From Candidatus Aegiribacteria sp. (GTDB lineage: Bacteria > Fermentibacterota > Fermentibacteria > Fermentibacterales > JCC-6), in contig JAUVLV010000005.1 of assembly GCA_030600545.1 (NCBI GenBank), forward strand, positions 118-64,117: a DNA stretch of 64,000 bases, given 5' to 3'. The position numbers were made by a program, and so were the translations under genes. The first letter of the stretch is position 1; the number at the start of each line of letters is the position of its first letter. Of the stretch, positions 26,380 through 48,700 are shown in pieces. Under the pieces are notes generated by a model. That model ran no database searches. It was not told the DNA's origin and saw nothing but the letters and a program-made list of their open reading frames with translations.

Positions 26380-26568
26380 TTCTATTCTTTCATTAAAAGC
26401 GGGTTTATATTCAGTAGGTATCTCTGTGCTCATCATCGAATGGAGTATATCTAAACCATGATACACAGAATATTTGATGAGAAAAAGGATTTGGAAGCCT
26501 GCCCAAGAATCGACTGGGAATACTGAGGAGTATATGAAACCGTATGTATCCGGCAAAGGTACTGTATA

Positions 26569-32166: not shown

Positions 32167-35100
32167 TGAGCCTTCCCGGACTTGTCGTTAAACGGAGAAT
32201 AACCTTCCTGATGATCTTCATTCTCATGGCAGGCGCCGGCCTCTTCGCTGTAACGCAGCTTGGCATCGATTACTTTCCCAAGGTGGACCTTGGCCGGATA
32301 GCTGTCATTACTATGCTTCCCGGTGCTGGACCTTCCGAAGTCGAAGGGTTGATAACCGAGGTAATTGAAGTCGCAGTTTCAGGGGTCGAGGGAATTGAAA
32401 CGGTCGTTTCCACGTCAAAAAACGGTGTAAGCCTTATTACACTGGAACTTATGAACAGTGCCGATATTGACCAGGCTGAAGTGGATGTAAGGGACGCTGT
32501 TGACAGAGTGAAAGATCAGCTTCCGGAAAGTTCAAGCGATCCGGTGATAATGGCGATGGAATCAAGCATGAAGCCATTGATCATGGTAACTTTCAGCAGT
32601 GATATGATGACTGGAACTCAGCTTCGAAACCTTGTTGATGAAGAGATCTCTCCGAGGCTGGGGAGGGTAGAAGGTATAGCTTCCGTTGATATCAGCGGCG
32701 GGCAGATCAGGCAGATAAATGTTGAAGTCGATCCGGTCCTGCTTGCAGAATTGGAAATGCCGATTTCTCAGCTATACGGTGCTCTCAGCGCTATAGGAGT
32801 CGATCAACCCGGTGGTGCTATAGAGGATGGGGACATGGAATTCTCCGTCAGTGTAAAATCCGGGTTCGATGATCTCAGCAGTATCAGGGAACTCGTGATA
32901 GGTGTACACGAGGGAAGACCGGTAAGGCTTGAAGAAGTGGCTCACGTTGTTGACGGTCATGCCGAACAGACAGACTTCACCCATCTTGATCAGGGCGAGG
33001 CGATACTGCTTGTTTTCAGAAAAAGCTCGGATGCTAACACAGTTAATACATGCAGCAGGCTTGAATCGGCAATAGAGGAACTTTCGGAGGACTATGCAGG
33101 TACTCTGGAAACCGAGATAATTTACAACCAGGAGCGTTTCATAACGGGGTCCATGAAGGATCTCATGCTGACTGCGGTTCAGGCGGTTATTCTTGCCGCG
33201 GCGGTACTTACATTCTTCCTGGGTTCGGTATCCAACGCGGGGATAGTCAGCCTTTCAATGCCACTTTCATTTGTGGCAACATTTGCTGTGATGTACCTGC
33301 TGGGAGTGAGCCTTAATATCATGTCCCTCGCCGGGTTGAGCATTTCAATCGGCATGATTGTGGATAACTCGGTTGTTGTGCTTGAGAACATTCACAGGTG
33401 GCGAAGGGAAGGCGAAGACCGGGCAAAGGCGGCAGAACACGGTGCGGCACAGGTTGGGATGGCGGTAACCGCGTCAACGCTTACAACCGTGGCTGTTTTC
33501 ATCCCGATGCTGTTTGTACCCGGGATGACGGGACAGATATTCAGGGATCTGAGCCTGACAATTGCTGCTGCTCTCTTCATATCACTGTTCGTTTCACAGT
33601 CACTTATACCTCTGCTTGCGTCAAGATCAAAAAACCTGATCAAACCGCATTCACAGCGTTCGATTGCAACAAGGGTACAGGGATGGCTGAGCAGGCTTGA
33701 GGAGAGGTATTCCAGAGCTATAGGCTGGTTGACCGAACATTCGAAATTCGTTTTTATTCCGGTAATACTGATTTTCATATTATCTATTTTCATGATGAGA
33801 TTCATCCCGAAGACTTACCTCCCGGAACCAAAGGAGGGAGTCATTGACATCGATATAAGCCTAGCTCCCGGGACCGGTCTTGAATTCACAGACAGCCTGC
33901 TGGTGGAGATTGAAACCAGGATTTTCGAGATTCTGCAGCCGGGTGATCTTGCGAATTCCTATATGAATGTAGGCAAGCGGGAGGGCATAGGTGCTCTCTT
34001 CGGTTCTTCATCCTCATCAAACGGAGAGATAAATCTATATTTCGTTAAAGAGAGTGAACGTTCCGGAAGCATTGAATACTACGACGCAGCCATACGTGAA
34101 ATGTTGGGCGAAGTTCCTGGGATCGAATACAGTCTTTCAAGCGGAATGCCTATCGGTAACGAATTCCCTGTAAGAATAGTCCTATACGGAACGGATCTTG
34201 CTGAACTTCGAAACATCGGGGAAATAGTGAAATCGGAAATGTATCGTATTCCCGGAGCGGTCGACATTTCATCCTCTCTTGGAAACCAGCTTATGCAGGT
34301 GGATTTTATACCTGATGAGAACGTGCTTTTTTTAAGAGGACAGTCTCCGGCCAGGATAGGATCGGAGGTCACCATCGGCTTGCTGGGATTGAATGCCTCA
34401 ACATATACTGAAAACAGTCGGGAGTACGATGTTAACATTCGCTACGCGGAGGAAGGAAGGTCGAGCAGGGAAGCTGTATCGGGACTTATCGCATACGGCA
34501 TGCCACTTGATGCATGGGGCAGCTTCCGTAACACTCTTGTTCCGGAAGAAATAGGAAGAAGGAACAGAACGAGAACTGTGGAGATTACCTGCAGGATTAA
34601 CGACAGAGCCCTTGGTGAAGTGGCTGCCGATGTTGAAATCATGATGGATACACTGAATCTGGGCGGCCACAGATACGAAATAATCGGTGATATAAAAGAC
34701 AGGGGAGAAGCGTTCGGAAGCATGGCGATCGCCATCGGTGTTGCGATAATCCTCGTTTACATGGTTATGGCTTCCCAGTTCGAATCACTCCTTGAACCAT
34801 TTATTATCATCGTTGAAGTTCCCCTGGCACTGATCGGGGTTATCTGGACTCTGCTTCTGACCGGAAGCACTATGGGACTTACTGCACTTGTAGGATTGCT
34901 TATGCTTACAGGAATAGTGGTGAACAATGGTATTGTATTTATTGATTACGCCAACCAGCTCAGGCGTAAGGAAGGTATGTCATCCAGGGAAGCTATTGTC
35001 ATAGCCGGAAGAAAAAGGATGCGCCCCATTCTCATGACCGCGATAACTACGATCCTTGCACTTATGCCGCTGGCCATAGGGGCTACGGAAAGCTCCGTAA

Positions 35101-35219
35101 TGTGGGCTCCCATGGCAAGAACCGTTGCCGGAGGCCTTGCGGTAGCCACGGTTCTGACGCTGGTCGTTCTGCCCTGCCTTTATGTGAAATTGGACAGGTG
35201 GCGTAAGGACACGGGCTAA
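32166..35219 (+). CDS. RND efflux permease (AcrB/AcrD/AcrF family)
   Basis: 1017 aa with 12-TM RND architecture. GMIVDNSVVVLENI and GIVVNNGIVFIDY motifs. Confidence 0.9.
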   Translation: MSLPGLVVKRRITFLMIFILMAGAGLFAVTQLGIDYFPKVDLGRIAVITMLPGAGPSEVEGLITEVIEVAVSGVEGIETVVSTSKNGVSLITLELMNSADIDQAEVDVRDAVDRVKDQLPESSSDPVIMAMESSMKPLIMVTFSSDMMTGTQLRNLVDEEISPRLGRVEGIASVDISGGQIRQINVEVDPVLLAELEMPISQLYGALSAIGVDQPGGAIEDGDMEFSVSVKSGFDDLSSIRELVIGVHEGRPVRLEEVAHVVDGHAEQTDFTHLDQGEAILLVFRKSSDANTVNTCSRLESAIEELSEDYAGTLETEIIYNQERFITGSMKDLMLTAVQAVILAAAVLTFFLGSVSNAGIVSLSMPLSFVATFAVMYLLGVSLNIMSLAGLSISIGMIVDNSVVVLENIHRWRREGEDRAKAAEHGAAQVGMAVTASTLTTVAVFIPMLFVPGMTGQIFRDLSLTIAAALFISLFVSQSLIPLLASRSKNLIKPHSQRSIATRVQGWLSRLEERYSRAIGWLTEHSKFVFIPVILIFILSIFMMRFIPKTYLPEPKEGVIDIDISLAPGTGLEFTDSLLVEIETRIFEILQPGDLANSYMNVGKREGIGALFGSSSSSNGEINLYFVKESERSGSIEYYDAAIREMLGEVPGIEYSLSSGMPIGNEFPVRIVLYGTDLAELRNIGEIVKSEMYRIPGAVDISSSLGNQLMQVDFIPDENVLFLRGQSPARIGSEVTIGLLGLNASTYTENSREYDVNIRYAEEGRSSREAVSGLIAYGMPLDAWGSFRNTLVPEEIGRRNRTRTVEITCRINDRALGEVAADVEIMMDTLNLGGHRYEIIGDIKDRGEAFGSMAIAIGVAIILVYMVMASQFESLLEPFIIIVEVPLALIGVIWTLLLTGSTMGLTALVGLLMLTGIVVNNGIVFIDYANQLRRKEGMSSREAIVIAGRKRMRPILMTAITTILALMPLAIGATESSVMWAPMARTVAGGLAVATVLTLVVLPCLYVKLDRWRKDTG

Positions 35220-36061
35220 CCCTTAAGCAAACCCTGAAGTACTTGCTCGACTAGAGAGACAGTCCTATCCTCGGGGTCGCGATAGGGAATCTCGAGGGAT
35301 ATTTCCTGAATAAGAGCAGATGCCCGATTTTCAAGAGCATGCTCCAGAATGGATTTGATTGATACTACGGTATTTCGGGTGAATGTTCTTGCGAGGTCAT
35401 ATCCAAGTACGAATGCCGAAGCTAATTCAACATCATAACCTAAATTCTCTAGCTTACTTGGGAATTCTTCATGAAGAAACTCCAGACCATACCATTCCTC
35501 AGCATGCCGCAAGAAGTACGCGAGGTCGTGCGCATCCTCTGAATCTTTCTGCAAGTAGTGGCGATCAGCCCATACAAGCACCTTCAATCCAAACTGCTCT
35601 GCATAGCCGGCAACACGAACCGGGAATGCCCCATTGATTATGACAACCAGGGCTGACTTATGAGCTTCTTCGAATCCAAGTACATTCATTTCGTATCGAT
35701 CGTCTTTCCCCCATCGGTAAACCTTCCCTGGACCGGCAAATTCACCGAATGGAACGATATTGATGGTGGATCCACTATTGTGTACCAGGCGCTGGACTTC
35801 TCCCTCGACAGGATCGAATCGGTGCCTTTCGCACAGGTGGTTACGAAGTGAATCATACTCATCAAGTGAGTCTACACATACGCCAAGATCCAGGTCTCCC
35901 GTGGCTCGCCCAGGTCTCATTTCTGACAGATACTCGCATATGAAAACTCTTGCAGAGGCACCACATATGAACCATTCAATTTCCATGTCTTCTGCCACTT
36001 CAGTTACAGCCTTCAGGATCACTGCATATGCTTCGCAGACTCTGATAGAATTACTTCTCAA
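35216..36061 (-). CDS. AbiEii/AbiGii-like nucleotidyltransferase (type IV TA / abortive-infection toxin type)
   Basis: N-terminal CGASARVF..RATGDLDLGV (GG.A....R.T.D.D. type) and later FGLKVLVWADRHYLQKDSEDAHDLAYFL (K...a.R....D..Dl). Overlaps the upstream partner by 11 nt. Confidence 0.5.
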   Translation of the reverse strand: MRSNSIRVCEAYAVILKAVTEVAEDMEIEWFICGASARVFICEYLSEMRPGRATGDLDLGVCVDSLDEYDSLRNHLCERHRFDPVEGEVQRLVHNSGSTINIVPFGEFAGPGKVYRWGKDDRYEMNVLGFEEAHKSALVVIINGAFPVRVAGYAEQFGLKVLVWADRHYLQKDSEDAHDLAYFLRHAEEWYGLEFLHEEFPSKLENLGYDVELASAFVLGYDLARTFTRNTVVSIKSILEHALENRASALIQEISLEIPYRDPEDRTVSLVEQVLQGLLKG

Positions 36062-37160
36062 GGAACTGCTCCCTGATCATTTCCGCGACCTCAATGTTTC
36101 GAGCTCCTCCAGTCGCATGCAAGTCAGCATAGACAAGCAAAGGAGGAGCGATTCCATGAGGAGTATTGTCATCGGGTAGGGCATGCCAGAATTTATCAAG
36201 CACATTGACTTCTCCCTGGTCATCCTTCCTGAGTCTGAGCGCACGAGCAAATTCAGGGAAGTCATCTCCGATGTAGACGGTCGCAACCTCTGGATGGAGG
36301 TAGTGGGTTAATTCTTCTGCTGCCACTTCACCGCCGAGATATACATCTATAGCTTGGAAATTCTTGTTCTTCCACCACTTTGGTAATTCCGTCGTAAAAC
36401 GCCTTGGATTCAGTTTCGGTCTCAGTTCAGTCGCGTACGCATCAACCCATCGATCTATTAAGACCTTCCTTCGATTCAGCACTGTGCCTTCTCGTAGTCT
36501 GCTGATGTAGCCATACTCTCGAAGGTCCGTAATAGTGTTGCCTACCGTCCCAAGTGCAACACCAGCCATTTTCGCGATCTCTCGATACGGTTGACGGATT
36601 ATGTGCCGGTTACATAGAAGAACGAATAATACTCTCAGCCCAGCGTTTCTGAAGAGACGAACCCTGTCGAAGGTTGCTATGCCTCGGTCTTTGTACCCAA
36701 CAATGTTGATAAATACTCCAGGATCATTTTGTACGATAAACATGTTCCCTGCAGTATCCAGAAATTGGATGTTCTGTTTCTTAAGTCTTTCAGCAATTGG
36801 AGGTGTCACATGCTTCGTGACTAGTAGAAATGGATTCGGGATACGCTCTTTCAGAATTGCGATCGCAGCGATTGTTTCTTGTCTCAGCTCATTCTTCACT
36901 AGCACATGATAAGGCTCAAGCAACTCGTCGAATTCCACGATCGCATCAATGAATGTGTCATCAACCCGCGCCTCCAATTTATACCTTACACCTTCAACAG
37001 GGATAACTCCCTTCAGGTGATCGAAGGCCTCTTTCAGGATTCTCTCCATGGTATACTTCTCAGTTCTCATATTGTTCTGCCTCTCCTCGGCGTTCAATAT
37101 TTTAGCGTGTTCATTGGCGGTGAACATATGAATAAATTGAACAATGTGAAATCCTGTCAA
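36051..37160 (-). CDS. AbiEi-like wHTH protein (putative cognate antitoxin/regulator)
   Basis: Central YREIAKMAGVALGTVGNTITDLREYGYI (HTH-like) followed by RKVLIDRWVDAYATELRPKL. Position and overlap with the NTase gene fit AbiEi/AbiEii organisation. Family recalled from memory only. Confidence 0.4.
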   Translation of the reverse strand: MTGFHIVQFIHMFTANEHAKILNAEERQNNMRTEKYTMERILKEAFDHLKGVIPVEGVRYKLEARVDDTFIDAIVEFDELLEPYHVLVKNELRQETIAAIAILKERIPNPFLLVTKHVTPPIAERLKKQNIQFLDTAGNMFIVQNDPGVFINIVGYKDRGIATFDRVRLFRNAGLRVLFVLLCNRHIIRQPYREIAKMAGVALGTVGNTITDLREYGYISRLREGTVLNRRKVLIDRWVDAYATELRPKLNPRRFTTELPKWWKNKNFQAIDVYLGGEVAAEELTHYLHPEVATVYIGDDFPEFARALRLRKDDQGEVNVLDKFWHALPDDNTPHGIAPPLLVYADLHATGGARNIEVAEMIREQFLEK

Positions 37161-37624: not shown

Positions 37625-39061
37625 ATGATCGACGATTCATCAACCGATTTCTATCTCGCCCATCCGGATGTGTCCACCAGAATACTGGAGGACAGAGGAG
37701 CGGTTCTGTTTAATCCTGATACAGGCCGGAAAAAGATCATCAATACCACCGGAGCATTCATCTGGGCACGCCTTGACGGTTCTCGACACCCGAAAGAGAT
37801 CATCGAGGAAATGCTGGATAATTTTAGCGACGTGCCCCGCAATCAGGTTAGAGACGATCTTGTTACGTTCTTGAACAGGATGACAGATGAAGGGATTGTT
37901 TCCGTTCAACAGTCGCGGGCAGCTACCGGCGGGACTATCAGGACCTTTCCCGACGCTACTGACGGACCGGAATCGTTCGATTTGTCACTGACCGGCAGGT
38001 GTAACCTGCACTGCGCTTATTGCTTTTACAGTCAGGAAATGAAATCCCTCCATGATCTGCCGAAGGATGAGTGGCTGAGTTTTTTTAAAGAACTGCGAGA
38101 CCTTGCGGTTCGGGACGTTTGTTTAAGCGGAGGAGAAGTTTTTCTCCGCCCGGATCTCTGGGAGTTGATCGACGCGTTAACTGACTGCCGAATGCGTTAC
38201 AGCTTACTGACCAACGGTACTCTTGTAACCGAAGATACCCTGGCACAGTTTGAAGCCGGAAAGCGCCGTCAGCGGTTAAGCAGCATCCAGATCTCAATTG
38301 ACGGGTCCTGCGCCGATGTGCACGATAGAAGTCGCGGTCAGGGCAGCTTTAAAAATGCCATCAGGGGGTTACGCCTTCTTAAAGATGCCGGTTTTCCGAT
38401 TACTGTTCGGGTAACGATTAATCAGCACAATGTGGACGACCTGGACAATATCGCCAGGTTGCTCCTTGATGATATAAAGATCGCCAGTTTCGGCACCAAC
38501 GATGTCATGCCCATGGGCGCCGGTTGCGATAATCAGAAAACGATTACGTTGCTCCCGCTGCAGCAGGTAAAGGCCATGAAAACACTGGCGAGGCTGGCTG
38601 ATCAATACGACGGGCGAATTACCGCTAGTGCAGGTCCCCTTGCCAAGTGGCGCACTTACCAGGAAATGGAGCATGCCCGCGCTACCGGTGAGATGTCCAC
38701 CCGCTGGAAAATGGGCTATTTGGCGGCCTGCGGCTGCATGTACAATAAGCTGTCCGTGCATCATAACGGCATTATTACGCCATGCAACATAATGGCCAAA
38801 ATGGAGCTGGGGCGGATCAACCGGGATGTGCTGACGGATATCTGGAAAACCCAACCTCTGCTTCAGTCTCTGAAGGACAGACGCCAAATTCCCATGACCG
38901 AAGTTCCCGGCTGCGAGGATTGCGAATGGGCGCCCTTTTGTAATGGAAGTTGTCCGGGGCTGGCCTATGAACTGACCGGTGATGTCAACCAGGCCAATCC
39001 GCATGATTGCTACTACCGGTTTTTGCAGAACACCGGGGGAATGAATTTTGAGTACGATTAA
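37625..39061 (+). CDS. Radical SAM/SPASM peptide-maturase-type enzyme with fused N-terminal PqqD-like (RRE) domain
   Basis: N-terminus ILEDRGAVLFNPDTGRKKIINTTGAFIWARLDG...DDLVTFLNRMTDEGIV (PqqD-like). LTGRCNLHCAYCF (CX3CX2C). C-terminus ACGCMYNK..ITPCN..PGCEDCEWAPFCNGSCPG (SPASM-type Cys pattern). Confidence 0.9.
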   Translation: MIDDSSTDFYLAHPDVSTRILEDRGAVLFNPDTGRKKIINTTGAFIWARLDGSRHPKEIIEEMLDNFSDVPRNQVRDDLVTFLNRMTDEGIVSVQQSRAATGGTIRTFPDATDGPESFDLSLTGRCNLHCAYCFYSQEMKSLHDLPKDEWLSFFKELRDLAVRDVCLSGGEVFLRPDLWELIDALTDCRMRYSLLTNGTLVTEDTLAQFEAGKRRQRLSSIQISIDGSCADVHDRSRGQGSFKNAIRGLRLLKDAGFPITVRVTINQHNVDDLDNIARLLLDDIKIASFGTNDVMPMGAGCDNQKTITLLPLQQVKAMKTLARLADQYDGRITASAGPLAKWRTYQEMEHARATGEMSTRWKMGYLAACGCMYNKLSVHHNGIITPCNIMAKMELGRINRDVLTDIWKTQPLLQSLKDRRQIPMTEVPGCEDCEWAPFCNGSCPGLAYELTGDVNQANPHDCYYRFLQNTGGMNFEYD

Positions 39062-39225
39062 TATTGAGTTGCAGATAAGCGGTTCCTCGGTGCATTCCTG
39101 CAGTATAACAACGGTTTCGTGTTCCGCGACCTGTAACTGCAGTGAAATCGGATTTTAAGACACATATGGATTGGAAGACCGATAGCATAATGCCAGGAGA
39201 ATTGCCAAATGATAATGTATAACGT

Positions 39226-40323
39226 ATGTATAATACTATGAATGATAATGTGAAAATAGTAGTACCGCCGTTAAGCGTTATTTACCTGTACATTACGGGT
39301 TCGTGCAACCTTAACTGCCGCCATTGCTGGATAGACCCGGTCTTTGAAAAAGATGGCATCTCACCTGACAAATATCTCCCCTGGGCGGACATTAAGAAGA
39401 TCGCTGAAGATGCCCGGGAATTGGGGCTGGGGCTAATCAAGATAACGGGAGGAGAACCGTTCCTCCACCCGGAAATGTGTGATATTCTCTATAGACTGAA
39501 GGAGATGGGGTTATCTCTGAGTATGGAGACGAACGGCACCCTTATCGGCGAGCGGGAAGCAGTGGCGCTTAAAGACAATGCTGTCAGATTCTCGGTTTCC
39601 ATAGACGGGCCGACAGCCGAGATGCATGACAGCCTGCGTGGTGTTAAAGGTGCTTTTGATAGAACAATGACCGGTCTGAAACATGTGCGGCGGGAAAAGC
39701 TCGATTTTCAGATCATCTCCTGTCTTTACCGCGGCAATTCAGACCGACTGGCTGAAATGGTTGAATTTGCCCGACAGGTGGGTGCCAGTTCTCTGAAAAT
39801 TAATGTCATCAACAGTATCGCCCGGTCTGATCAAATGAACAAGGCAGGTGAATTGCTGACCGTGCCGGAAGTCCTGTCGGTTTACCGTGATTTTAAGCAG
39901 GAGCTTGTTGATCTTGAGAATTTCCGCGTAATTTTTGATATTCCCCCGGCGTTCAAAAGTTTGAAAGAGATCCGGACCCACGGCTTTGGTACCTGCGGTA
40001 TTCTTTACATACTGGGGGTGCTTCACAATGGTCATGCAGGGTTATGCGGAATTGGTCTGCATGTAAAAGAACTGGATTTCGGCGATCTGAAAACACTTGG
40101 AATAAAACAAATATGGGAGGAGAACGCTATTCTCAACTCCATAAGGGAAAACCTGCCCCACAGCCTGGAGGGTATCTGCGGCCGGTGCGCACTGCGATCG
40201 TACTGCCTTGGTAAATGCATTGCAAATACGTATAATATTAAGCAAAACCTTTTTGGAGCCTATGGATTCTGCCAGGACGCGTACAGCATGGGACTGTTCC
40301 CTGAGACGAGGATTGTTAATTGA
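39226..40323 (+). CDS. Radical SAM/SPASM enzyme (second maturase candidate)
   Basis: ITGSCNLNCRHCW and ITGGEPFLHPE. C-terminus GTCGILY..HAGLCGIG..GICGRCALRSYCLGKC. An alternative start at 39238 is coupled to a 10-codon uORF. Confidence 0.9.
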   Translation: MYNTMNDNVKIVVPPLSVIYLYITGSCNLNCRHCWIDPVFEKDGISPDKYLPWADIKKIAEDARELGLGLIKITGGEPFLHPEMCDILYRLKEMGLSLSMETNGTLIGEREAVALKDNAVRFSVSIDGPTAEMHDSLRGVKGAFDRTMTGLKHVRREKLDFQIISCLYRGNSDRLAEMVEFARQVGASSLKINVINSIARSDQMNKAGELLTVPEVLSVYRDFKQELVDLENFRVIFDIPPAFKSLKEIRTHGFGTCGILYILGVLHNGHAGLCGIGLHVKELDFGDLKTLGIKQIWEENAILNSIRENLPHSLEGICGRCALRSYCLGKCIANTYNIKQNLFGAYGFCQDAYSMGLFPETRIVN

Positions 40324-40949
40324 AACATTCGGCAGAGGAAAACTACTCAGCGGTTAAAAACCTCACCAGCAGAGAAAATTTCTGTCTTTATATGCTTGAA
40401 GGCGGGAGTATGCGCCCCGCTTTTCATGAGGGAGATCTCCTTCTTTTGAAAAAAGTGCCGTCGGTATCACTGAAACCGGGCAATGTTATCGCCTTTTATT
40501 CACCTTGTCTCCAGAAAACTGTCATACACCGGATCATTGGATTCCGGAATACCGATACAGATCGTTTATTGCTTACCCGGGGAGACAGCTCCGGCCGTCC
40601 GGACGAACCGGTACAGCTGCAATTTGTTAAGGGACGTGTTTCCGCGCGATTGAGTAACGGCCATTTTCAGCCAGGCAAACGGTATCATGAATTATTCTGG
40701 CTTCACGCATCCCGGTGGCGCCGATCATTTCGTCGTTTAGTTAAATACCTGGCTGTTAAAATCACACAGATAGTATTTCCTGTTCTGCCAGTTCGGGTTC
40801 GAGCGCGGCTGAGAGGTCTGAAAATATTGAAAACTGCTTTTCCGGGTAAAAGAATGATTGAGGAAGAACTCCGGCCGGGCACCGGGAATCGTGTCTGGAT
40901 TCATCCGCTGTTCGCGAAAACAAGGCTGAATGACAGGTTCAGAATATGA
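40320..40949 (+). CDS. S26-type peptidase (Ser/His, archaeal/SipW-like signal-peptidase fold); leader-peptidase candidate
   Basis: GGSMRPAFHEGDLLLLKK (nucleophile Ser), TVIHRIIGF (His in place of the bacterial Lys), and LLTRGDSSGRPDEP (GDxN-type box). TTG start overlaps the rSAM stop. No N-terminal TM anchor is evident. Confidence 0.6.
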   Translation: MKHSAEENYSAVKNLTSRENFCLYMLEGGSMRPAFHEGDLLLLKKVPSVSLKPGNVIAFYSPCLQKTVIHRIIGFRNTDTDRLLLTRGDSSGRPDEPVQLQFVKGRVSARLSNGHFQPGKRYHELFWLHASRWRRSFRRLVKYLAVKITQIVFPVLPVRVRARLRGLKILKTAFPGKRMIEEELRPGTGNRVWIHPLFAKTRLNDRFRI

Positions 40950-41221
40950 CAGACTTACAGTACAGATTAAATCCGAAGATCGTTTTCCGGGAAGAGGAGG
41001 GTGAGTCCCTGCTGTTTGATCCCGATACCGGCCGGGTCAAGATTCTCAACGAAACCGGTACTCTGATCTATGAGCTGTTAACGCAGAAATTGAGCAGGGA
41101 AAAGATAGTTGATTCCATCACATCCGAATACGACAATATGAACCGTCAGGACCTGGAGCAGGATCTTGACGAATTTGCGGCTCAAATGGAGCAATCGGGC
41201 ATTTTAACAGTTATTACATAA
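40946..41221 (+). CDS. Stand-alone PqqD-family (RRE-type) peptide-binding protein
   Basis: IVFREEEGESLLFDPDTGRVKILNETGTLIYELL..SREKIVDSITSEY..DLDEFAAQMEQSGIL. ATGA overlap with the upstream gene. Confidence 0.75.
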   Translation: MTDLQYRLNPKIVFREEEGESLLFDPDTGRVKILNETGTLIYELLTQKLSREKIVDSITSEYDNMNRQDLEQDLDEFAAQMEQSGILTVIT

Positions 41222-41231
41222 GGAGAAGATA

Positions 41232-41486
41232 ATGACAGTCAAAAAGAAAGCATACGAAAAGCCGATGATTCAGGATCTCGGGCGGATATTGACCGGTTCA
41301 GCGCAAATGCCGATGGGCTATTGCACTTCTGGTGATTCTCCCTCCGGAGCACAGCAGGAATGTACGGGAGGAAGCGGCGTTTCGACTGCGTGCGTCGGTG
41401 GGAATTTATTCAACTATCCTCAGGATGTCTGCCAGGCCGGGGGAGTGGCAGCTGATTATTGCGGCTTCGGGGGATCTGTTGGTTGA
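41232..41486 (+). CDS. RiPP precursor-peptide candidate (84 aa): Lys-rich leader and Cys/Gly-rich repetitive core
   Basis: AGGAG 6 nt upstream of the ATG. The leader is MTVKKKAYEKPMIQDLGRILTGSA. The core has 5 Cys, each in a CxxG context, with spacing C-x12-C-x9-C-x12-C-x9-C. It sits inside the rSAM/PqqD cassette. Confidence 0.7.
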   Translation: MTVKKKAYEKPMIQDLGRILTGSAQMPMGYCTSGDSPSGAQQECTGGSGVSTACVGGNLFNYPQDVCQAGGVAADYCGFGGSVG

Positions 41487-41522: not shown

Positions 41523-42404
41523 TTGCGTTTCAGCATCCGGCTTCCATTAACAGAGACTGCAGTCTCATTGGTCATAAGGGACAGTGTATTATTCAATCCT
41601 GATTCCTCACCGCCGGTATTCAAACCTTTTGATATTGAACAGTCCGATTCGTTCAGGAAAGTGTATACAATCGACCTTGTCATGGCCGATGGAAAAACCC
41701 GGCCGACCGGTCGGCAGCTTCTGAATTATCGCGATGTTGTTAGTATCTATGAAAATGATATGCAGCTCTTTGTTGAACTGGCTGAAACTGCTTCAGATGA
41801 TTGCCAGGTTCTGGCCAACATGGGCGTTTCACTCGCACTCTGTCATATACTCTGCCGGGAGAATATTTTCCTCCTTCATGCCGCCTCGATCGTCAGAAAC
41901 AACCAGGGGTTTATTTTCCCAGGCCGAAGCGGCTCCGGCAAAACAACTCTTTCCAGATTGTCTATCGACGAAAACCACGTACTGTGCGATGAGCACTCCG
42001 CGGTGATGGGCAATAGTGCTTGCCGTGCGGATGAAACCGGCAGTGCCTACAGTGTTTTTCCCGGTCCCCGGTGGGCTCAGTTCACGTTTGATCCTGAATA
42101 TTACAGTGAAGCAGCCTGGCGGGATGAGCCCTATCGCGCCTTCCCCCTGAAGGCCATCATTTTCCCGAGCAGGTCGGGCCTGCGCGACGACACATGGCTT
42201 GAGAGGCTCGACAAAATTGACGCAACCGTTTCATTGATTGAGCGGTTCATTGACACCTCCTTTGTAAAAGCACTGCCGGCTGAAACCCATAGAAAAGCTT
42301 TTCATTTCTTCTCGCAGCTTGCGCGAAGCATCCCCTGCTACAGCATTCATGCTAATCTTCAGACCGATTTCTGGAAGACAATCGATGAAACAGTCGGGCG
42401 GTAA
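41523..42404 (+). CDS. HPr-kinase-C-terminal-like P-loop protein
   Basis: LLHAASIVRNNQGFIFPGRSGSGKTTLSRLS...VLCDEHSAV resembles the HprK C-terminal G.SG.GKS/T...L..DD block. TTG start after GGAGAGGA. Confidence 0.55.
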   Translation: MRFSIRLPLTETAVSLVIRDSVLFNPDSSPPVFKPFDIEQSDSFRKVYTIDLVMADGKTRPTGRQLLNYRDVVSIYENDMQLFVELAETASDDCQVLANMGVSLALCHILCRENIFLLHAASIVRNNQGFIFPGRSGSGKTTLSRLSIDENHVLCDEHSAVMGNSACRADETGSAYSVFPGPRWAQFTFDPEYYSEAAWRDEPYRAFPLKAIIFPSRSGLRDDTWLERLDKIDATVSLIERFIDTSFVKALPAETHRKAFHFFSQLARSIPCYSIHANLQTDFWKTIDETVGR

Positions 42405-42666
42405 GACAATGTCGGCCAGGGAAGATTTTGCCGTCGAGGAATTCGGCGGAGAAGCTTTGATAGTAAGGCTTGCAGATATGCGTTTATTCAGGGTCAACAA
42501 ACATGCCCTGGTATTATTTGAGATGTTGCTGGAGTCCAACTGTAATGCTGCCGCTGCTGTAGAGACTGCTGAAAAACATAAGATGGATCTGGATCCTAAG
42601 GATATTGAATCGGTTCAGAAGATTTTGTTTTCCTCAGAAAAAGATCGAGGGAAAAGTCAGCTGTAG
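42385..42666 (+). CDS. Small PqqD-like protein (third RRE-type module); start 42385 or 42409
   Basis: FAVEEFGGEALIVRLADMRLFRVNKHALVLFEMLLESN...DPKDIESVQKIL follows the PqqD pattern (v.e.vdge.vl.....g.l..lN.tA..i...l). The track start at 42319 lies inside the upstream gene. Confidence 0.45.
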   Translation: MKQSGGKTMSAREDFAVEEFGGEALIVRLADMRLFRVNKHALVLFEMLLESNCNAAAAVETAEKHKMDLDPKDIESVQKILFSSEKDRGKSQL

Positions 42667-42962: not shown

Positions 42963-43460
42963 ATGGATTACCGACTTATAATTTTCGATGCTGATGGAAC
43001 ACTCAGGTACTGCACGGTTGAGGGGCAGCCTTGCCCGAACAGGGCCGGTGAATGGAAGCTTTATCCGGGTGTGATCGAGACGCTCGAACGATTCAACTGG
43101 GCGCATCCCGGAGAAGAAACCGGAGTTGGCTATGGTATTGCCAGTAATCAGGGAGGCGTGGGCGTTGGCTACTTTGCTGAGAGTACTGCCATCGCACTCC
43201 TTGAGGATACATTCATTGAGGCGTTCGGTTTCAGCCCTGCTGAGGAAACTATCGAGATATGTCCTCACGTTCCGCACAGTGGATGTGGTTGCCGAAAACC
43301 TGAGCCCACGATGCTTAACCGCCTTATGAAACTTTACGGGACCTCTCCCGATCATGTTCTTTTCGTAGGTGATCGAGATGCCGACAGGAAGGCTGCTTTC
43401 AACGCCGGATGTGATTTTCAGTGGGCCAGTGAGTTCTTTGACAGAGATCCTGAATCATAA
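42963..43460 (+). CDS. HAD-IIIA phosphatase (GmhB/HisB-N-like)
   Basis: LIIFDADGTLR, GIASNQGGVG, CPHVPHSGCGCRKPEPTML (Zn-finger-like insert plus the CRKP motif), and FVGDRDADRKAAFNAGC. Confidence 0.75.
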   Translation: MDYRLIIFDADGTLRYCTVEGQPCPNRAGEWKLYPGVIETLERFNWAHPGEETGVGYGIASNQGGVGVGYFAESTAIALLEDTFIEAFGFSPAEETIEICPHVPHSGCGCRKPEPTMLNRLMKLYGTSPDHVLFVGDRDADRKAAFNAGCDFQWASEFFDRDPES

Positions 43461-43515: not shown

Positions 43516-44721
43516 TCAGAAGTAATATCCCGATGACATAAAACATACTCCTGGCCAGGAGCCGAACTCTGATAAAGGGGTAGCATCGCAGGAAAGAGGT
43601 TTTTTCCCCACTCCTTGCCTGTAACCCATATTTAGAACAATATCTTCCCGGACACTGTATTCTCCCGATAGAGAGATGTAGGCTGATGGGTCGGCAAGGT
43701 TAAAGAGGGCGCTTGCGTTGAGGTTCAGGAGCGGGCTGAGTGTCCATGAAAGGCCGGGGCACAGGTAGTGCCTTCCCAGAAGGTAGATTCCGCCGTTCGT
43801 CCATGCCGGGCCTGTGATAATGTCAGTATAATCCGCAGCATCGTCCGACCCGGAGGAATTGAAATGGTATTCAAGGTATCCATACAGAGTGGCATTAAAC
43901 CAGCTCCTGTCGTAACCTGTTGAAATGCTCCAGAAAGTATCTTCATCCTCCGTTTCTTCCTCTCCGAAAAAGCTTGTGGTTACTACTGCTAATTCCATCC
44001 ATCCCGTTCCCCTTCCAAGGGAACGGTTGAGGCTTCCTCCTATCATGAGATTTTTCCTGAAGCATGCTGTAATAAGGGTGGCATCCGTCCGGAACAGATA
44101 AAACCTGCCACGAAGCCAGCAGCCGCTTTCTGAGAATCGTCCGTTCTTACCAAAAACATAACCCGCGTCCAGTTCGGACATCATACCAACTGGAAAAACC
44201 GACCTTATTGCATCTACGCCTGTTCTGTATTCTGTATTCACTGTGCCGTACTGAAAGGGCGCAATAAAATCGGTTGGGCTTATGGATTTGGCAACTCCCC
44301 AGAAAATGGCCTGTCTTCCAGCTGTCAATGTTGCTATTGAGGTTCTCAGAGAGAGATTCAGCCTGTCAAGGTTCTGAAGTATGCTGAAGGATTCGTCACC
44401 GTTCCAGCCGGAAGGAAATATTCTTCTTTCAAGCTCAGCCATTCTGAATATATGTGAATCATTTCCACTGGTATTACCGCTGAGAGCAGGATTACCCGCA
44501 GTAGGAACTGGAACCCATGCTGAATTGAAATCCAATTCTCCGATTTCATGATGCAGCATCAATCTGAGTGGAACCTGGAATACGTAACGAAGGGAGGAGT
44601 CGGGAAAGGTCTGATCTGTTATTGAAAACTCCGGTTTAAGGACACCGGATATTTCGATTTCGTTGGCTGTTACTCCGTTGATCACTGACAGGATGAAAGT
44701 AAAGAATATGATCGATTTCAT
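43516..44721 (-). CDS. Predicted outer-membrane beta-barrel protein, last gene of the ABC cassette
   Basis: Signal peptide, alternating beta-strand-like pattern rich in G/S/Y/W, and a C-terminal ..SSGYYF. ATGA-type overlap with the ATPase gene. Confidence 0.5.
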   Translation of the reverse strand: MKSIIFFTFILSVINGVTANEIEISGVLKPEFSITDQTFPDSSLRYVFQVPLRLMLHHEIGELDFNSAWVPVPTAGNPALSGNTSGNDSHIFRMAELERRIFPSGWNGDESFSILQNLDRLNLSLRTSIATLTAGRQAIFWGVAKSISPTDFIAPFQYGTVNTEYRTGVDAIRSVFPVGMMSELDAGYVFGKNGRFSESGCWLRGRFYLFRTDATLITACFRKNLMIGGSLNRSLGRGTGWMELAVVTTSFFGEEETEDEDTFWSISTGYDRSWFNATLYGYLEYHFNSSGSDDAADYTDIITGPAWTNGGIYLLGRHYLCPGLSWTLSPLLNLNASALFNLADPSAYISLSGEYSVREDIVLNMGYRQGVGKKPLSCDATPLSEFGSWPGVCFMSSGYYF

Positions 44722-45428
44722 TCAAATTTTTCCGGGGATGTGTTTCCATCCAGCTTTCCATCCCTCAGAACAACAATCTTCTTTGCCCTCTGTATTACGA
44801 TCTCATCATGGGTTGAAAACAGAAAAGTCATTCCAGTTTCCTCGTTGAGCTTTCGCATCATATCAAGAAGGGCTCCACTGGTTTTTGAATCAAGGTTCGC
44901 TGTAGGCTCATCGGCAATAACAAGGGAAGGACGGGAGACCACCGCTCTGGCCACCGCCACTCTCTGTTGCTGGCCTCCCGATAACTGAAGGGGCAGCCTT
45001 GTGGCGTATTCGGCGATTCCTACTTTTTCCAGACTGTTCATTACCCTTTTGTGGCGTTCAGCGGGAGGAATTCCCTGGAGAAGCATTATGTATTCAACAT
45101 TTTCCTCTACCGTGAGTACCGGAAACAGATTGTAAGCCTGGAAAACAAAGCCTATATGATCCCTCCTGAAGTCGGAAAGCTCTCTTCCGCTCATCTCGGA
45201 AATCAGTTTTCCTGATAGCCATACTTTCCCCTCGGTGGGCGTATCGAGCCCGGCCAGAACATTGAGAAAGGTCGTTTTTCCCGAACCGGATGGTCCAATT
45301 ATGGCAGTGAATTCTCCTTTTGTAAGGGTGTAGTCTATGCCCCTTACCGCATGGACAGGAACACCGGAATCATCGTAGGTTTTTACAATTCCTTCAGCGA
45401 CTATTACATTGGTATCAACCATATACAT
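44718..45428 (-). CDS. ABC transporter ATP-binding protein (MacB/LolD type)
   Basis: GPSGSGKTTFLNVLAGLD, LSGGQQQRVAVARA, and LVIADEPTANLD. Confidence 0.9.
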   Translation of the reverse strand: MYMVDTNVIVAEGIVKTYDDSGVPVHAVRGIDYTLTKGEFTAIIGPSGSGKTTFLNVLAGLDTPTEGKVWLSGKLISEMSGRELSDFRRDHIGFVFQAYNLFPVLTVEENVEYIMLLQGIPPAERHKRVMNSLEKVGIAEYATRLPLQLSGGQQQRVAVARAVVSRPSLVIADEPTANLDSKTSGALLDMMRKLNEETGMTFLFSTHDEIVIQRAKKIVVLRDGKLDGNTSPEKFE

Positions 45429-45437
45429 CTCCGTGAT

Positions 45438-46661
45438 CTATAAGCTTTTACGTATTGCTTCAGCCGGGTTCAGCCTGCCGGCGTGGATCCCCGGACAAAT
45501 TCCTGCAGCCGTTGTAAGAATCAGAGTGAAGAGAGGATATATCCATACCCGGCTGAGCTTGAGTATTGGATATAGCGGTTTGTTAAATACAACACCTGAT
45601 ACATCGAACTCGCCGAAGTTTATCCCTGTTCTTGAGGTTATCCATATTATCAGCAGACCAATTATGCTTCCTGTCAGTGTACTGATCACCGCGATCCAGA
45701 AAGCCTCAAGAATAACCATGGCGTTTATTGTTCCTGCTCTGGTTCCTACAGCCTTCATAACCCCGAATTCGTACATTCTCTCAAATATTGACATGAATAG
45801 GGAATTAACTATTCCGAAAACAACAAGAGCAAAAAGAATCATGGCAGTTATTGCCATGCCCAGATCAACCATGTTGAGCATTGTGCTGACCTGTGGTGCT
45901 AGTTCCGGCCATCCGAGGGCGCTGTTTCTAAAAACAGAGAATTTACTCCAGAATCCAAGAGTGGTATCAGCCCCCATCTCCGATTCTGCGAATCTCACTG
46001 CTATTTCATGAATACTCCCCGGTATGCCGAGCATTCTGCCTGCCGTGTTCAGGTTAATAAAAGCGGAATATCGATCAAGGTCATCGCTGCCGAAACGGCA
46101 TATACCTGACACAAAGAACATATTGCTCGATAGTCCGCTGTCAGCCTGGGCAGCAGTGATAACGATTACATCACCAGGGGCGGCGTTCAGATCATCCGCC
46201 AGTTTGTATCCGATAATGAGTTCGGTGCTGTCTCCGCTCAGGTAAGAACCCGAATCGATGGCAGCTTCCAGCATTGTCACTGCAGGATCGGTTTCACTGT
46301 CAACGCCGATGAGGGTGACTGGCTTCAGTTCCGTAGTTGATGTTGCCGATGCAGGGGACAGAATCCGCGGGGTGCAGGCGCTTACTGTTGAATCCTGTCC
46401 GAGCATGAATAGAACCGAATCTGGCCTCTCAACAGTAAGGTCAATCCTCTTTGTGTCCAGAAAACCGTCACGATGGATCTGGGCATCTCCCATCCAGGAT
46501 TCAGTCGTTGTCTGTATCATATGCTCGCTCATGCCCTGCATAAGAGCTTCGTAAAAGATCATTGAACCAAGACCCATACCAACGGCAAGACCGGTTATCA
46601 CAGTTCTCCTGCCATTCCTCCAGATGCTTCTCCAGGCGAACTTCACAAGCCTGCAGAACAT
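45438..46661 (-). CDS. FtsX-family ABC permease (MacB/LolC/E-like)
   Basis: N-terminal TM, a large periplasmic domain, then 3 TM segments. FGVMKAVGTRAG and a C-terminal AGRLNPAEAIR. Confidence 0.85.
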   Translation of the reverse strand: MFCRLVKFAWRSIWRNGRRTVITGLAVGMGLGSMIFYEALMQGMSEHMIQTTTESWMGDAQIHRDGFLDTKRIDLTVERPDSVLFMLGQDSTVSACTPRILSPASATSTTELKPVTLIGVDSETDPAVTMLEAAIDSGSYLSGDSTELIIGYKLADDLNAAPGDVIVITAAQADSGLSSNMFFVSGICRFGSDDLDRYSAFINLNTAGRMLGIPGSIHEIAVRFAESEMGADTTLGFWSKFSVFRNSALGWPELAPQVSTMLNMVDLGMAITAMILFALVVFGIVNSLFMSIFERMYEFGVMKAVGTRAGTINAMVILEAFWIAVISTLTGSIIGLLIIWITSRTGINFGEFDVSGVVFNKPLYPILKLSRVWIYPLFTLILTTAAGICPGIHAGRLNPAEAIRKSL

Positions 46662-46662
46662 G

Positions 46663-47928
46663 CTATACCGTCCTCAGAGATTTAGCGGCTTTAGTATGGG
46701 CAGCCTTGAGCGCCGGAAGGAAGCTTACCGTTGAAGCGGTAATGATCACGCATATGGCAGGGATCCAGTAACAGTCCGGAGATATTGAGGCGATCATCTC
46801 GCTGAAGACTGTGCCTCCGTAATTAATTGGCGGGTCAAGGACCAGACCATGTTTCGAAAGGAAAAGAAGCCCTCCTGTACTCAGTATGCTGCCGGCGATT
46901 ATGCTGATAATTCCCATGATATTGGCTTCCAGGACTATCATCCTTACGATGAACCCGGGTTTAGTCCCGAGGGCTTTCATCACACCGAATTCCCGCCTCC
47001 GCTCGAGGACCATCATAAGAATTGTGTTGAGAACTCCCATTGCGGCTACAAACATTATTATGAAAATCATTACCTTAAGGCTTGATTCATCGGCCTTCAT
47101 CCCGTTATAGAATTCCTTCGCGAAAGTTTTCCAGGAATCGGTTTCAACATCTCTTCCCGATAACCTTGCGGATATATCTTCCGTAAGATCATCGACTGTG
47201 CCCAGCGAATTGGTCATTACGGCCAGTTCGTGCACCTTCCCCGATAGGGCGAACATGATACGGGCATCGGCCAGCGTAATGTAACAGGTGTTTCTGTCGA
47301 TATCGGCATTACCGGTGCTTACAATGCCCTGGATTACATACTTCCTGTCCGCGCTTGCGCCGTCAGCTGCCTGTGAAAGCATGATGAGGGAGTCTCCTGC
47401 TGAGGCATCAAGAATAATAGACAGTTCCTGTCCGAGTATGATCTGACCGGTGGCGTAGTAGAATGAATCCGCTGCGGAAGCTGTCAGCATCCCTCCGCTT
47501 ACGATATTACTCGAGAAATCCGTGGCTGCATCCTCCATTGAAGGGTCCAATCCGATCACCGACGCTGCCGCCGAGTTGGAGAACACGTTTCCGGACTCAG
47601 CGTCACCTGACCTGACTGCAAGAAGAGCTCCGGAATAGATCCTGGGTGCCCATGTTCTGACACCGGGCAAGGAATCCAGAACAGCTCCAATTGACTGGTA
47701 ATCGCTGATCGTTGAATAGATGGATGGATCTTCGAGATAGCCGCTGTGGTGTATCTGGATCTGACCAGTCCTGCCGTTCGTGAAGAACATGATAATGCTG
47801 CCATACGAGCCGTTCATCCACCCGATGGAAATGGAGGAGAGGAAAAAACCGCCGGTCATGGTCAGAAGAGTTAAAATCGTTCTTCTTTTCTGCCGGAACA
47901 CGTTCCGCCAGGCCAGTTTTAAAAGCAT
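46663..47928 (-). CDS. FtsX-family ABC permease (second subunit)
   Basis: MLLKLAWRNVFRQKRRT, FGVMKALGTKPG, and LPALKAAHTKAAKSLR. ATG at 47928 lies 1 nt after the upstream stop. Confidence 0.85.
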   Translation of the reverse strand: MLLKLAWRNVFRQKRRTILTLLTMTGGFFLSSISIGWMNGSYGSIIMFFTNGRTGQIQIHHSGYLEDPSIYSTISDYQSIGAVLDSLPGVRTWAPRIYSGALLAVRSGDAESGNVFSNSAAASVIGLDPSMEDAATDFSSNIVSGGMLTASAADSFYYATGQIILGQELSIILDASAGDSLIMLSQAADGASADRKYVIQGIVSTGNADIDRNTCYITLADARIMFALSGKVHELAVMTNSLGTVDDLTEDISARLSGRDVETDSWKTFAKEFYNGMKADESSLKVMIFIIMFVAAMGVLNTILMMVLERRREFGVMKALGTKPGFIVRMIVLEANIMGIISIIAGSILSTGGLLFLSKHGLVLDPPINYGGTVFSEMIASISPDCYWIPAICVIITASTVSFLPALKAAHTKAAKSLRTV

Positions 47929-47929
47929 A

Positions 47930-48700
47930 TCACCGGGACTGAAGGTTTCTGAGGGAAAAGATATTTTCGTCCACACCCTGGTTGAATTCAGCGTTAGACC
48001 AGGTTATGGTTGTGCTCTGATCTTCATTATAAGCGGGGATTACCTGCATCTGCGAAGGTATTGTTCTGCAGCCCATTTCCTGTACATCGGAGTAGGTGAC
48101 AGTTTTAATCAGGCTGTCGTGACTGTCGAAGTACTTTTCCCAGAGGGGAATTGTGTCAGAAATACTGACTGCGCAGACGATGCTGGACCATACCACTGCG
48201 GTGGATGATTTCGGAACCAGTCTGACGTATACAACCCCCTCCGCAGTATCACCTGTAAGATCAGTATCGGTTGTGTACGAGTAAGTGTAATCCTCCGCGT
48301 AGGTGATTTCTCTGACTATATCGTTATTAGTGATGTCCGAACCCATCCACGAGCCTGCCATCATCGAGGGTGGTACTCTGACTGTGCTGTTGGTATTAGG
48401 AAGGTAATTCCACATTTCGGTACCGATTCTGAGGGTTGCCATTCCGGCTTCCCTTACGGGGGATAGTACCCTGATGAAGGTATTGTCCGTTCCATGGGAC
48501 CAGGCATTCATTGTAAGTGTTCGTTCCCAGTGTTCCGTTACGATGTGCATCGACATCTCAGTGTAACTGTCGTCGCTTCTGTAAAGCCGGTCCAGAGAAT
48601 GTACAAGGTCGTCTATATCAGGCTGGGAACAGGCTGTGGAAATGAAACCGGGAATGCATATCATGGTAAAGATTATTGTCAGATATTTCATTCTTCTCAC
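47930..48700 (-). CDS. LolA-like outer-membrane lipoprotein-sorting-type protein
   Basis: Signal peptide with Cys (FISTACS). ..TMNAWSHGTDNTFIRVLSPVREAGMATLRIGTEMWNYLPNTN..VRVPPSMMAGSWMGSDITNNDI resembles the LolA_like pattern. GTGA overlap with the TetR gene. Confidence 0.6.
   Translation of the reverse strand: MRRMKYLTIIFTMICIPGFISTACSQPDIDDLVHSLDRLYRSDDSYTEMSMHIVTEHWERTLTMNAWSHGTDNTFIRVLSPVREAGMATLRIGTEMWNYLPNTNSTVRVPPSMMAGSWMGSDITNNDIVREITYAEDYTYSYTTDTDLTGDTAEGVVYVRLVPKSSTAVVWSSIVCAVSISDTIPLWEKYFDSHDSLIKTVTYSDVQEMGCRTIPSQMQVIPAYNEDQSTTITWSNAEFNQGVDENIFSLRNLQSR

Follow-up and report, generated by a model that had tools for sequence, protein, structure and literature searches.

What becomes of a small, cysteine-rich peptide whose gene lies in the midst of genes for radical S-adenosylmethionine (SAM) enzymes? 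The question is raised by an open reading frame (ORF) at 41232..41486 (plus strand) of a 64,000-nucleotide stretch of Candidatus Aegiribacteria sp. (Fermentibacterota; assembly GCA_030600545.1, contig JAUVLV010000005.1, positions 118 to 64,117), the whole of which is referred to here as the window. An initial annotation had proposed that this ORF encodes a precursor peptide. The ORF resides within a tightly packed plus-strand operon in the order ScmE, ScmF, protease, ScmD, peptide, ScmC and 93-aa ORF, and its 84 codons very probably encode the substrate peptide of the neighboring two-enzyme radical SAM cassette. From sequence comparisons, we hold with considerable confidence that the product is a genuine precursor of a RiPP (a peptide made on the ribosome and modified after translation), specifically a divergent, long form of ScmA, the precursor predicted for the SynChlorMet (SCM) radical SAM cassette. 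That the cassette type is already catalogued under this name is a point that the initial annotation missed.

A genuine gene

Translation of 41232..41486 reproduces exactly the peptide of the initial annotation (84 aa plus stop), together with its cysteines at positions 31, 44, 54, 67 and 77 (gaps of 12, 9, 12 and 9 residues), the x-x-Gly that follows each of them (CTSG, CTGG, CVGG, CQAG and CGFG) and the Shine-Dalgarno sequence AGGAG, read from the sequence at 41221..41225 (plus strand), 6 nt 5' of the ATG. The estimate that about a quarter of the core is glycine likewise agrees with a count of 14 of the 60 residues of the predicted core (23%). The CxxG pattern is no by-product of this glycine richness, since only 40 of 200,000 shuffles of the core placed Gly at +3 of all five cysteines. 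The AGGAG overlaps the stop codon of the preceding PqqD-like (ScmD-like) gene, and the peptide gene lies 10 nt 3' of ScmD and 36 nt 5' of ScmC. Three independent gene-prediction pipelines call the ORF, and its ratio of nonsynonymous to synonymous substitution rates (dN/dS), measured against two relatives of identical synteny (L037 and L038), is 0.26-0.53.

Homologs of the peptide are numerous. A database search returned seven close homologs at 66-80% identity, in which all five cysteines and the stretch YEKPxIxDLGxILTGSAQxPMG are invariant. A word-seeded profile search gathered 74 proteins, every one of which is "hypothetical" to any source that names it, and an exhaustive hidden Markov model (HMM) search of 1.84 billion cluster representatives (50% clusters) yielded 526 hits at E<=1e-3, of which 163 also reached E<=1e-10; almost all of the 526 are 70-105 aa in length. 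The notion that the ORF is a chance reading frame in a G+C-rich intergenic stretch, with no gene present, could draw on the fact that the window peptide matches no Pfam or NCBIfam model and is named "hypothetical protein" by every naming source. The comparative data refute it, through the residues that are invariant in the 526 representatives and through a dN/dS below 1, with the Shine-Dalgarno sequence, the operon packing and the three concordant gene calls also speaking against it, and we give it next to no credence. Finally, AlphaFold2, supplied with the 74-sequence alignment, predicts the peptide to be disordered (mean predicted local distance difference test score, pLDDT, of 45.7), which fits a substrate peptide rather than a folded small protein.

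Homologous cassettes in other genomes

Scanning a genome collection with ScmE returned 30 loci from Fermentibacteria, Desulfobacteraceae, Clostridia, Aminicenantes, Anaerolineae and Kiritimatiellia/Verrucomicrobiota, the closest being from Fermentibacteria at 84% identity. An HMM built from the window's close subfamily alone recognized small ORFs adjoining ScmE/ScmF in the Desulfobacteraceae, Clostridia, Aminicenantes, Anaerolineae and Fermentibacteria loci; one or two homologous peptides come after ScmF in 17 of the 30 loci, covering at least five phyla. These peptides are built to a common plan, with a Lys/Arg-rich start, then Y-E-x-P...D-L, and then 4-7 cysteines, nearly all of them in C-x-x-G. 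In the close relatives L037 and L038, the gene order is that of the window. The initial annotation had staked its precursor claim on two points, the occurrence of a similar peptide in homologous cassettes and the conservation of its cysteines, and both have held: 17 of the 30 loci do carry such a peptide, and the cysteines are 92-100% conserved among 207 family members aligned to the profile, the set from which the conservation values given below for the leader, the junction and the Cys and Gly of the modules are taken.

Several loci depart from the plan of one precursor per cassette. Multiple precursors or cassettes occur in L023/L034 (Anaerolineales contig CAYZGO010000001.1), L008, L012, L026 and L027; in some of these genomes, a single cluster holds two different precursor genes along with two copies of ScmC, and others have two complete cassettes side by side, one of them with a short ScmA-like peptide. 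In L026/L035, a radical SAM-ScmC fusion is also found nearby, as is a methyltransferase. The five Kiritimatiellia/Verrucomicrobiota loci (L014-L018) possess homologs of ScmE, a double-PqqD ORF and ScmF, with ScmC in L016 and L017. In L017, a 111-aa ORF between ScmF and ScmC encodes what we take to be a four-helix-bundle protein of the 23S-rRNA-IVS (intervening sequence) type.

The C-x-x-G module

The five modules of the window peptide, all on the plus strand, are C31-T-S-G34 (41322..41333), C44-T-G-G47 (41361..41372), C54-V-G-G57 (41391..41402), C67-Q-A-G70 (41430..41441) and C77-G-F-G80 (41460..41471). Their Cys and Gly are conserved at 99% and 99%, 100% and 100%, 99% and 100%, 97% and 97%, and 92% and 91%, respectively, and A73, near the fourth module, at 76%. 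The residues between these Cys-Gly anchors are hypervariable. In the cores of the 74 peptides, 353 of 385 cysteines stand in C-x-x-G, the rest mostly in C-S-P-x-G, and a generic module can be written as [P/A](-4)-x-G(-2)-x-C-x-x-G-[G/S]-x-[P/A](+6), with gaps of 8-12 residues between successive cysteines. The number of modules ranges from 3, in forms of 57-66 aa, to about 22 in P0158 (265 aa). In P0158, a leader of the same kind (YISPEIF...) is followed by about 22 consecutive CxxG modules, showing that module number is freely expandable.

The initial annotation had described the core as a repeat with a 23-residue period. To judge by the family alignment, the repeat unit is instead a single CxxG module of ~10-13 residues, and the 23-residue period is the sum of a long and a short module. 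Specifically, residues 29-51 and 52-74 of the window peptide share 5 of 23 positions (two Cys, two Gly and one Gln), and the 12, 9, 12, 9 spacing is confined to the window's close subfamily, the commonest spacing in the family being 9, 9, 10, 10, 9. With halves this dissimilar and a spacing unconserved family-wide, the 23-residue unit was rejected.

A further suggestion, that the modules recall the Cx3-acceptor rings of thioether peptides made by radical SAM enzymes (ranthipeptide or sactipeptide type), fares no better, although its starting point, a C-x-x-G at every cysteine, stands. The residue at Cys+4, where the acceptor of a PapB-type ring would lie, is variable in the family (G 31%, S 19%, T 9%, P 8%), leaving the analogy unsupported, and no preference for Asp, Asn or Thr was seen at offsets -6 to +7 from Cys. 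The invariant partner of each Cys is the Gly at +3, beyond which there is a preference for Pro or Ala at +6 and -4.

The leader and its removal

Residues 1-24 form the predicted leader (MTVKKKAYEKPMIQDLGRILTGSA; 41232..41303, plus strand), with a predicted cut after A24, and residues 25-84 form the predicted core of 60 aa (41304..41483, plus strand), with an unmodified monoisotopic mass of 5799.372 Da. The leader motif Y8-E-K-P11-M-I13-Q-D15-L16-G17 (41253..41282, plus strand), which the initial annotation had picked out as YEKPxIxxLG, is borne out by the family, with conservation of 99% at Y8, 99% at P11, 89% at D15 and 93% at L16. It resembles the lasso-peptide leader motif YxxPxL, which spans -17 to -12 (PMC10368454). 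A cut after A24 would put Y8, P11 and I13 of the window peptide at -17, -14 and -12, the very register of the lasso motif. Two observations count against this analogy: the position of the lasso "L" is Ala in 69% of the family, and between the Tyr and the junction most members have one residue fewer, giving a register of -16. The peptide nevertheless has the marks of a precursor recognized by RiPP recognition element (RRE) domains, namely a conserved leader motif, co-encoded PqqD-like domains and a small gene that is co-located with the maturases across taxa.

The family junction between leader and core reads [V 47% / A 43%]-x-G (95%) and then Q (62%), and the window has T-G-S-A and then Q25. 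With a small residue at -1 and a small or aliphatic one at -3, the junction fits the specificity of S26-type enzymes. The likely agent is the product of the cassette's third gene (40320..40949, plus strand), a soluble signal-peptidase-I-like protease (S26; endoplasmic reticulum (ER)/SipW-type Ser/His) of 209 aa from a TTG start (185 aa from the alternative start at 40392) and the predicted leader peptidase. It scores 64.5 bits against TIGR02228 (cutoff 51.85) and has weak Pfam matches to Peptidase_S24 and S26. Its motifs GGS30M, VIH70R and RGDS are kept in 12 cassette homologs, a Ser/His pattern that is presumably that of ER/SipW-type S26 enzymes. Cleavage at TGSA|Q25, as first proposed in the initial annotation, would be consistent with both the family junction and this conserved, soluble Ser/His protease.

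No membrane anchor is predicted for the protease, as no 19-residue window of it exceeds a Kyte-Doolittle value of 1.6. The leader, for its part, contains no hydrophobic h-region, its maximum 8-residue Kyte-Doolittle value being 0.66. Together, these features point to a soluble leader peptidase of signal-peptidase ancestry rather than to Sec processing, and a Sec signal peptide was rejected on the same grounds: the S26 motifs with their Ser and His are present, but the membrane anchor and Sec-type substrate of a canonical signal peptidase are not. They also bear on whether the ORF might encode a small protein, rich in Cys, that is secreted by means of a Sec signal peptide, is held together by disulfides and merely happens to adjoin unrelated radical SAM genes. 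Such a protein would account for the Lys-rich N-terminus, the small-x-small G-S-A before Q25 and the S26-family neighbor; it sits poorly with a leader that has no h-region and a peptidase that has no anchor, with a peptide that is predicted to be disordered and has an odd number of cysteines (five), and with the co-occurrence of peptide and ScmE/ScmF across phyla in conserved order. We consider it very unlikely.

The genes of the cassette

ScmE (37625..39061, plus strand) is a 478-aa radical SAM/SPASM maturase whose N-terminal domain is of the PqqD/RRE type. It scores 409.3 bits (E=1.2e-122) against TIGR04250, above the 400-bit cutoff, and its Pfam domains are PqqD (residues 26-92), Radical_SAM and SPASM. 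The CX3CX2C motif at 126/130/133 and eight cysteines in the SPASM region are kept in 23-28 of 28 homologs. The second radical SAM/SPASM maturase, a ScmF-like protein of 365 aa (39226..40323, plus strand; 361 aa from the start at 39238 chosen by the gene callers), has no RRE domain. Its best match is TIGR04251, at 333.6 bits (below the 400-bit cutoff) and by a lead of >180 bits. Its CX3CX2C is at 27/31/34, and its seven SPASM cysteines are kept in 23 of 24 homologs. In both maturases, the set of SPASM cysteines is complete. The gap between the two maturase genes (39062-39225) is 164 nt of non-coding sequence in the window versus ~41 nt in L037 and L038.

The ScmD-like gene (40946..41221, plus strand) encodes a stand-alone PqqD/RRE protein of 91 aa that matches the Pfam PqqD domain at 51 bits (E=1.9e-13; cutoff 23.4). 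It also matches, each time below the cutoff, the ScmD model TIGR04248 (E=4e-9; 36.6 bits versus 100) and the lasso PqqD chaperone model NF033530 (E=4.7e-9). Downstream of the peptide gene, a ScmC-like, HPr-kinase-related P-loop protein of 293 aa is encoded at 41523..42404 (plus strand; alternative start 41568). It matches TIGR04249 over its C-terminal half only (50.4 bits, E=2e-13; below the 125-bit cutoff) and HprK_rel_A at E=2.7e-7; a PF27840 ScmC match is precomputed for a gene identical to that of the window, and a Walker A motif, GRSGSGKT, lies at residues 133-140.

The last gene of the cassette, orf93 (42385..42666, plus strand), overlaps the end of ScmC and encodes a third PqqD/RRE-like protein, of 93 aa. 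No Pfam match was found for it. A jackhmmer search links it to ScmD and, through their N-terminal half, to the ~200-aa double-PqqD ORFs that, in relatives, sit between ScmE and ScmF. Gene callers recognize orf93 in identical contigs, and L037 has an 87-aa ORF at the same place. By these domain matches, the cassette carries three PqqD/RRE-like domains, at the N-terminus of ScmE, in ScmD and in orf93.

Other genes lie close by. Directly 3' of the cassette, at 42963-43460 (plus strand), is a HAD-IIIA phosphatase (GmhB/histidinol-phosphatase-like), which could partner ScmC if the latter is a kinase; none of the related cassettes inspected showed it. Directly upstream (35216-37160, minus strand) is an AbiEi antitoxin (PF09952, E=1.4e-35) paired with an AbiEii-like nucleotidyltransferase toxin, preceded at 31108-35219 (plus strand) by an RND efflux pair consisting of a membrane fusion protein of the HlyD type and a 1017-aa pump of the AcrB family. 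An ORF at 26527-27462 (plus strand) has a weak phmmer match to ScmF (22 bits), possibly reflecting a shared radical SAM core. For the cassette itself, PADLOC found no defense-system match beyond that of the generic radical SAM core to viperins.

A proposed maturation pathway

How might these proteins act on the peptide? In the pathway that we propose, drawn from domain content and from analogy, the RRE domains of ScmE, ScmD and orf93 would bind the Lys-rich 24-residue leader through its motif Y8-x-x-P11-x-I13-x-D-L, and ScmE and ScmF would work iteratively along the disordered core of 60 residues, on its five C-x-x-G modules. The most likely outcome would be one Cys-derived intramolecular crosslink per module, with the C-alpha of Gly+3 as a candidate acceptor. 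Thioether formation is the likeliest single chemistry, though we would put it slightly short of an even chance. It is the commonest outcome when characterized SPASM maturases (PapB, CteB and the sactisynthases) act on Cys-rich repeat cores. A weak pointer is the seven-Cys SPASM pattern of ScmF, which in thioether synthases is associated with an open site at the auxiliary cluster, where a substrate Cys binds.

The enzymes themselves do not announce their chemistry. ScmE and ScmF score against the NCBIfam models of WgkB (140 bits), AhbD (127-148), StsB (118), GeoRSP (103-108), MftC (83-109) and PapB (63-86 bits), and their neighbors in the PDB are SkfB, PqqE, anSME and MoaA, in each case over the core domain only, the best core-domain match of ScmE being to SkfB (E=8.5e-20). 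With such similar scores against models of thioether, C-C bond, heme and cofactor enzymes, sequence does not pick the reaction. It is accordingly quite possible, if less than probable, that the peptide is a precursor on which some chemistry other than thioether crosslinking is performed. The cysteines might be turned into a heterocycle of the thiooxazole type, which has been reported for the GeoRSP-type maturase SbtM, or undergo formylglycine-type oxidation as with anSME; alternatively, the invariant Gly or other residues might be epimerized or joined by C-C bonds, the cysteines being left as metal ligands or disulfides. The nearly equal scores of ScmE and ScmF against many SPASM families of different chemistries would agree with this, as would the mixed company of SkfB, PqqE and anSME among the PDB matches, the two distinct radical SAM enzymes, which suggest two distinct reactions, and the conservation of no acceptor side chain at a fixed offset from Cys, where there is just the Gly at +3 with Pro/Ala at +6 and -4. 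On the other side stand the prevalence of thioethers among SPASM maturases acting on Cys-rich repeat cores and, more weakly, the seven-Cys SPASM pattern of ScmF.

Thioether formation remains the preferred single outcome, and it is tempting to go one step further. Tentatively, this family of more than 500 clusters may represent a new RiPP class, in which a minimal C-x-x-G module, present 3 to about 22 times in each peptide, would be turned into an undescribed structure by the iterative action of two SPASM enzymes, with RRE-guided tailoring by an HPr-kinase-like protein and a soluble signal-peptidase-I homolog that cuts the leader. Candidates for that structure are a ladder of four-residue micro-rings, each from Cys-S to the C-alpha of Gly(+3), or a new Cys-derived heterocycle.

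Two further steps can be suggested. By analogy, the HPr-kinase-like ScmC may phosphorylate the leader-bound peptide: the HPr-kinase-like BsfK phosphorylates a lasso precursor and is strongly stimulated in doing so by the RRE protein (PMC10368454). The soluble Ser/His protease would then remove the leader at T-G-S-A|Q25, and the product would be exported, perhaps as in the relatives in which a dedicated ABC exporter (~610 aa, ABC_membrane/ABC_tran) is encoded directly 3' of the peptidase gene. For the window, a candidate could be the convergent operon at 43516-49308 (minus strand), which encodes a TetR regulator, a LolA-like protein, two FtsX/MacB-type permeases, an ABC ATPase and a 401-aa protein for which no family match was found.

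Export also separates the proposed pathway from one in which the peptide gives rise, inside the cell, to a redox cofactor comparable to pyrroloquinoline quinone (PQQ) or mycofactocin. The cassette does follow the PqqD plus PqqE-like radical SAM/SPASM logic of such systems, no dedicated exporter adjoins it in the window, and a HAD-family phosphatase (42963-43460) follows it. However, the exporter gene of the relatives, a hypervariable core with 3 to about 22 modules (which is typical of secreted RiPPs, whereas cofactor precursors have a fixed reactive dipeptide) and the two precursors or two cassettes of several loci all tell against a cofactor, which we judge improbable.

Relation to ScmA

The SCM precursor has a curated model of its own, TIGR04252 ("SynChlorMet cassette protein ScmA"; 49 positions, cutoff 35 bits). 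The best match among the relatives is a 63-aa peptide of L008, at 24.6 bits (E=2e-5, below the cutoff), and this same peptide is found by the window-subfamily HMM at E=2e-4; a homolog search started from it returned itself and nothing else. Within the 74-member family, 7 peptides match TIGR04252 weakly, the best at E=3e-4.

Several findings weigh against the assignment of the window peptide as a ScmA-type precursor matured in the way proposed. The peptide itself does not match TIGR04252 even at E<=10, and ScmF, ScmD and ScmC fall below their curated cutoffs, the SCM models being nevertheless the best match of each. No recognizable peptide was found in the fetched flanks of L013, L021 and the five Kiritimatiellia/Verrucomicrobiota loci L014-L018, in the last of which the substrate may be different or encoded elsewhere; the remaining peptide-less loci are mostly contigs that end before or just past ScmF. 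Among the 207 aligned members, no core Ser or Thr is conserved that could serve as a kinase site, and no dedicated exporter lies beside the cassette in the window. Finally, we infer the chemistry, the division of labor between ScmE and ScmF, the role of the kinase and the cleavage site alike.

Taken as a whole, the missing TIGR04252 match of the window peptide and the weak links through its relatives place the ORF in a large, unmodelled sister branch of ScmA. As judged from its gene content, the cassette is SCM-like but modified: a soluble S26 peptidase has been added, the RRE genes are split and the modules are more numerous.

Significance

The SCM system is a predicted one, with curated models for all of its parts. 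The present work identifies the likely substrate of a large sister branch, not covered by Pfam or NCBIfam and numbering 526 cluster representatives in anaerobes of at least five phyla. For this branch it also defines C-x-x-G as the minimal unit of iteration, along with a leader motif and a predicted site of cleavage. Among radical SAM RiPPs, a signal-peptidase-like leader protease that is soluble and an HPr-kinase-like partner are unusual, and they could add to the enzymes available for peptide engineering; to our knowledge, no other RiPP pathway employs a soluble signal-peptidase-I homolog as its leader protease. The system is directly testable by co-expression and mass spectrometry.

Comparison with known systems

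The closest relative of the window cassette is the SCM cassette, the description of which is said to come from D. Haft's in-silico work on radical SAM systems. In the literature searched, no paper was found on the SCM cassette, its chemistry or an experimentally characterized product, and nothing relevant on CxxG with radical SAM thioethers or on radical SAM enzymes combined with HPr kinase, PqqD and signal peptidase. Both cassettes comprise two PqqE-like radical SAM/SPASM enzymes, a PqqD-like protein, an HPr-kinase-like ScmC and a small Cys/Gly-rich peptide, and both peptides start with K-x-Y-[EQ]-K-P. They differ in that the ScmA model has 49 positions whereas the window peptide is longer, at 84 aa and with five or more modules. 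In addition, the window cassette contains a soluble peptidase of the S26 type as well as a third RRE-like ORF, and its gene order departs from that of many relatives.

The ranthipeptides and sactipeptides (PapB/freyrasin, CteB/SCIFF, AlbA and SkfB) share with the window system an RRE-dependent radical SAM/SPASM maturase, a Cys-rich core and an iterated short motif. PapB/freyrasin, for example, has six CX3D repeats, whereas the window family possesses no conserved Asp, Asn, Thr or other acceptor at a fixed offset. Likewise, the window enzymes score far below the cutoffs of the PapB, AlbA, SkfB and StsB models, no better than against heme or PQQ enzymes.

A different set of features is shared with the lasso systems (BsfA/BsfB1/BsfK; PMC10368454), namely the leader motif Y-x-x-P-x-[L/I], the match to the PqqD chaperone and an HPr-kinase-like P-loop protein. 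The window cassette nonetheless includes neither a lasso cyclase nor a B2 transglutaminase-type protease, and its core chemistry is entirely different. Finally, the HxS-repeat system of HxsA (PMC13128918) and the TVGG/cyclopropylglycine peptides (PMC10878394) were predicted in silico before they were characterized: although their motifs and enzymes differ from those described here, they too combine a motif iterated a variable number of times with one or two SPASM enzymes, and they too were first recognized by comparative genomics.

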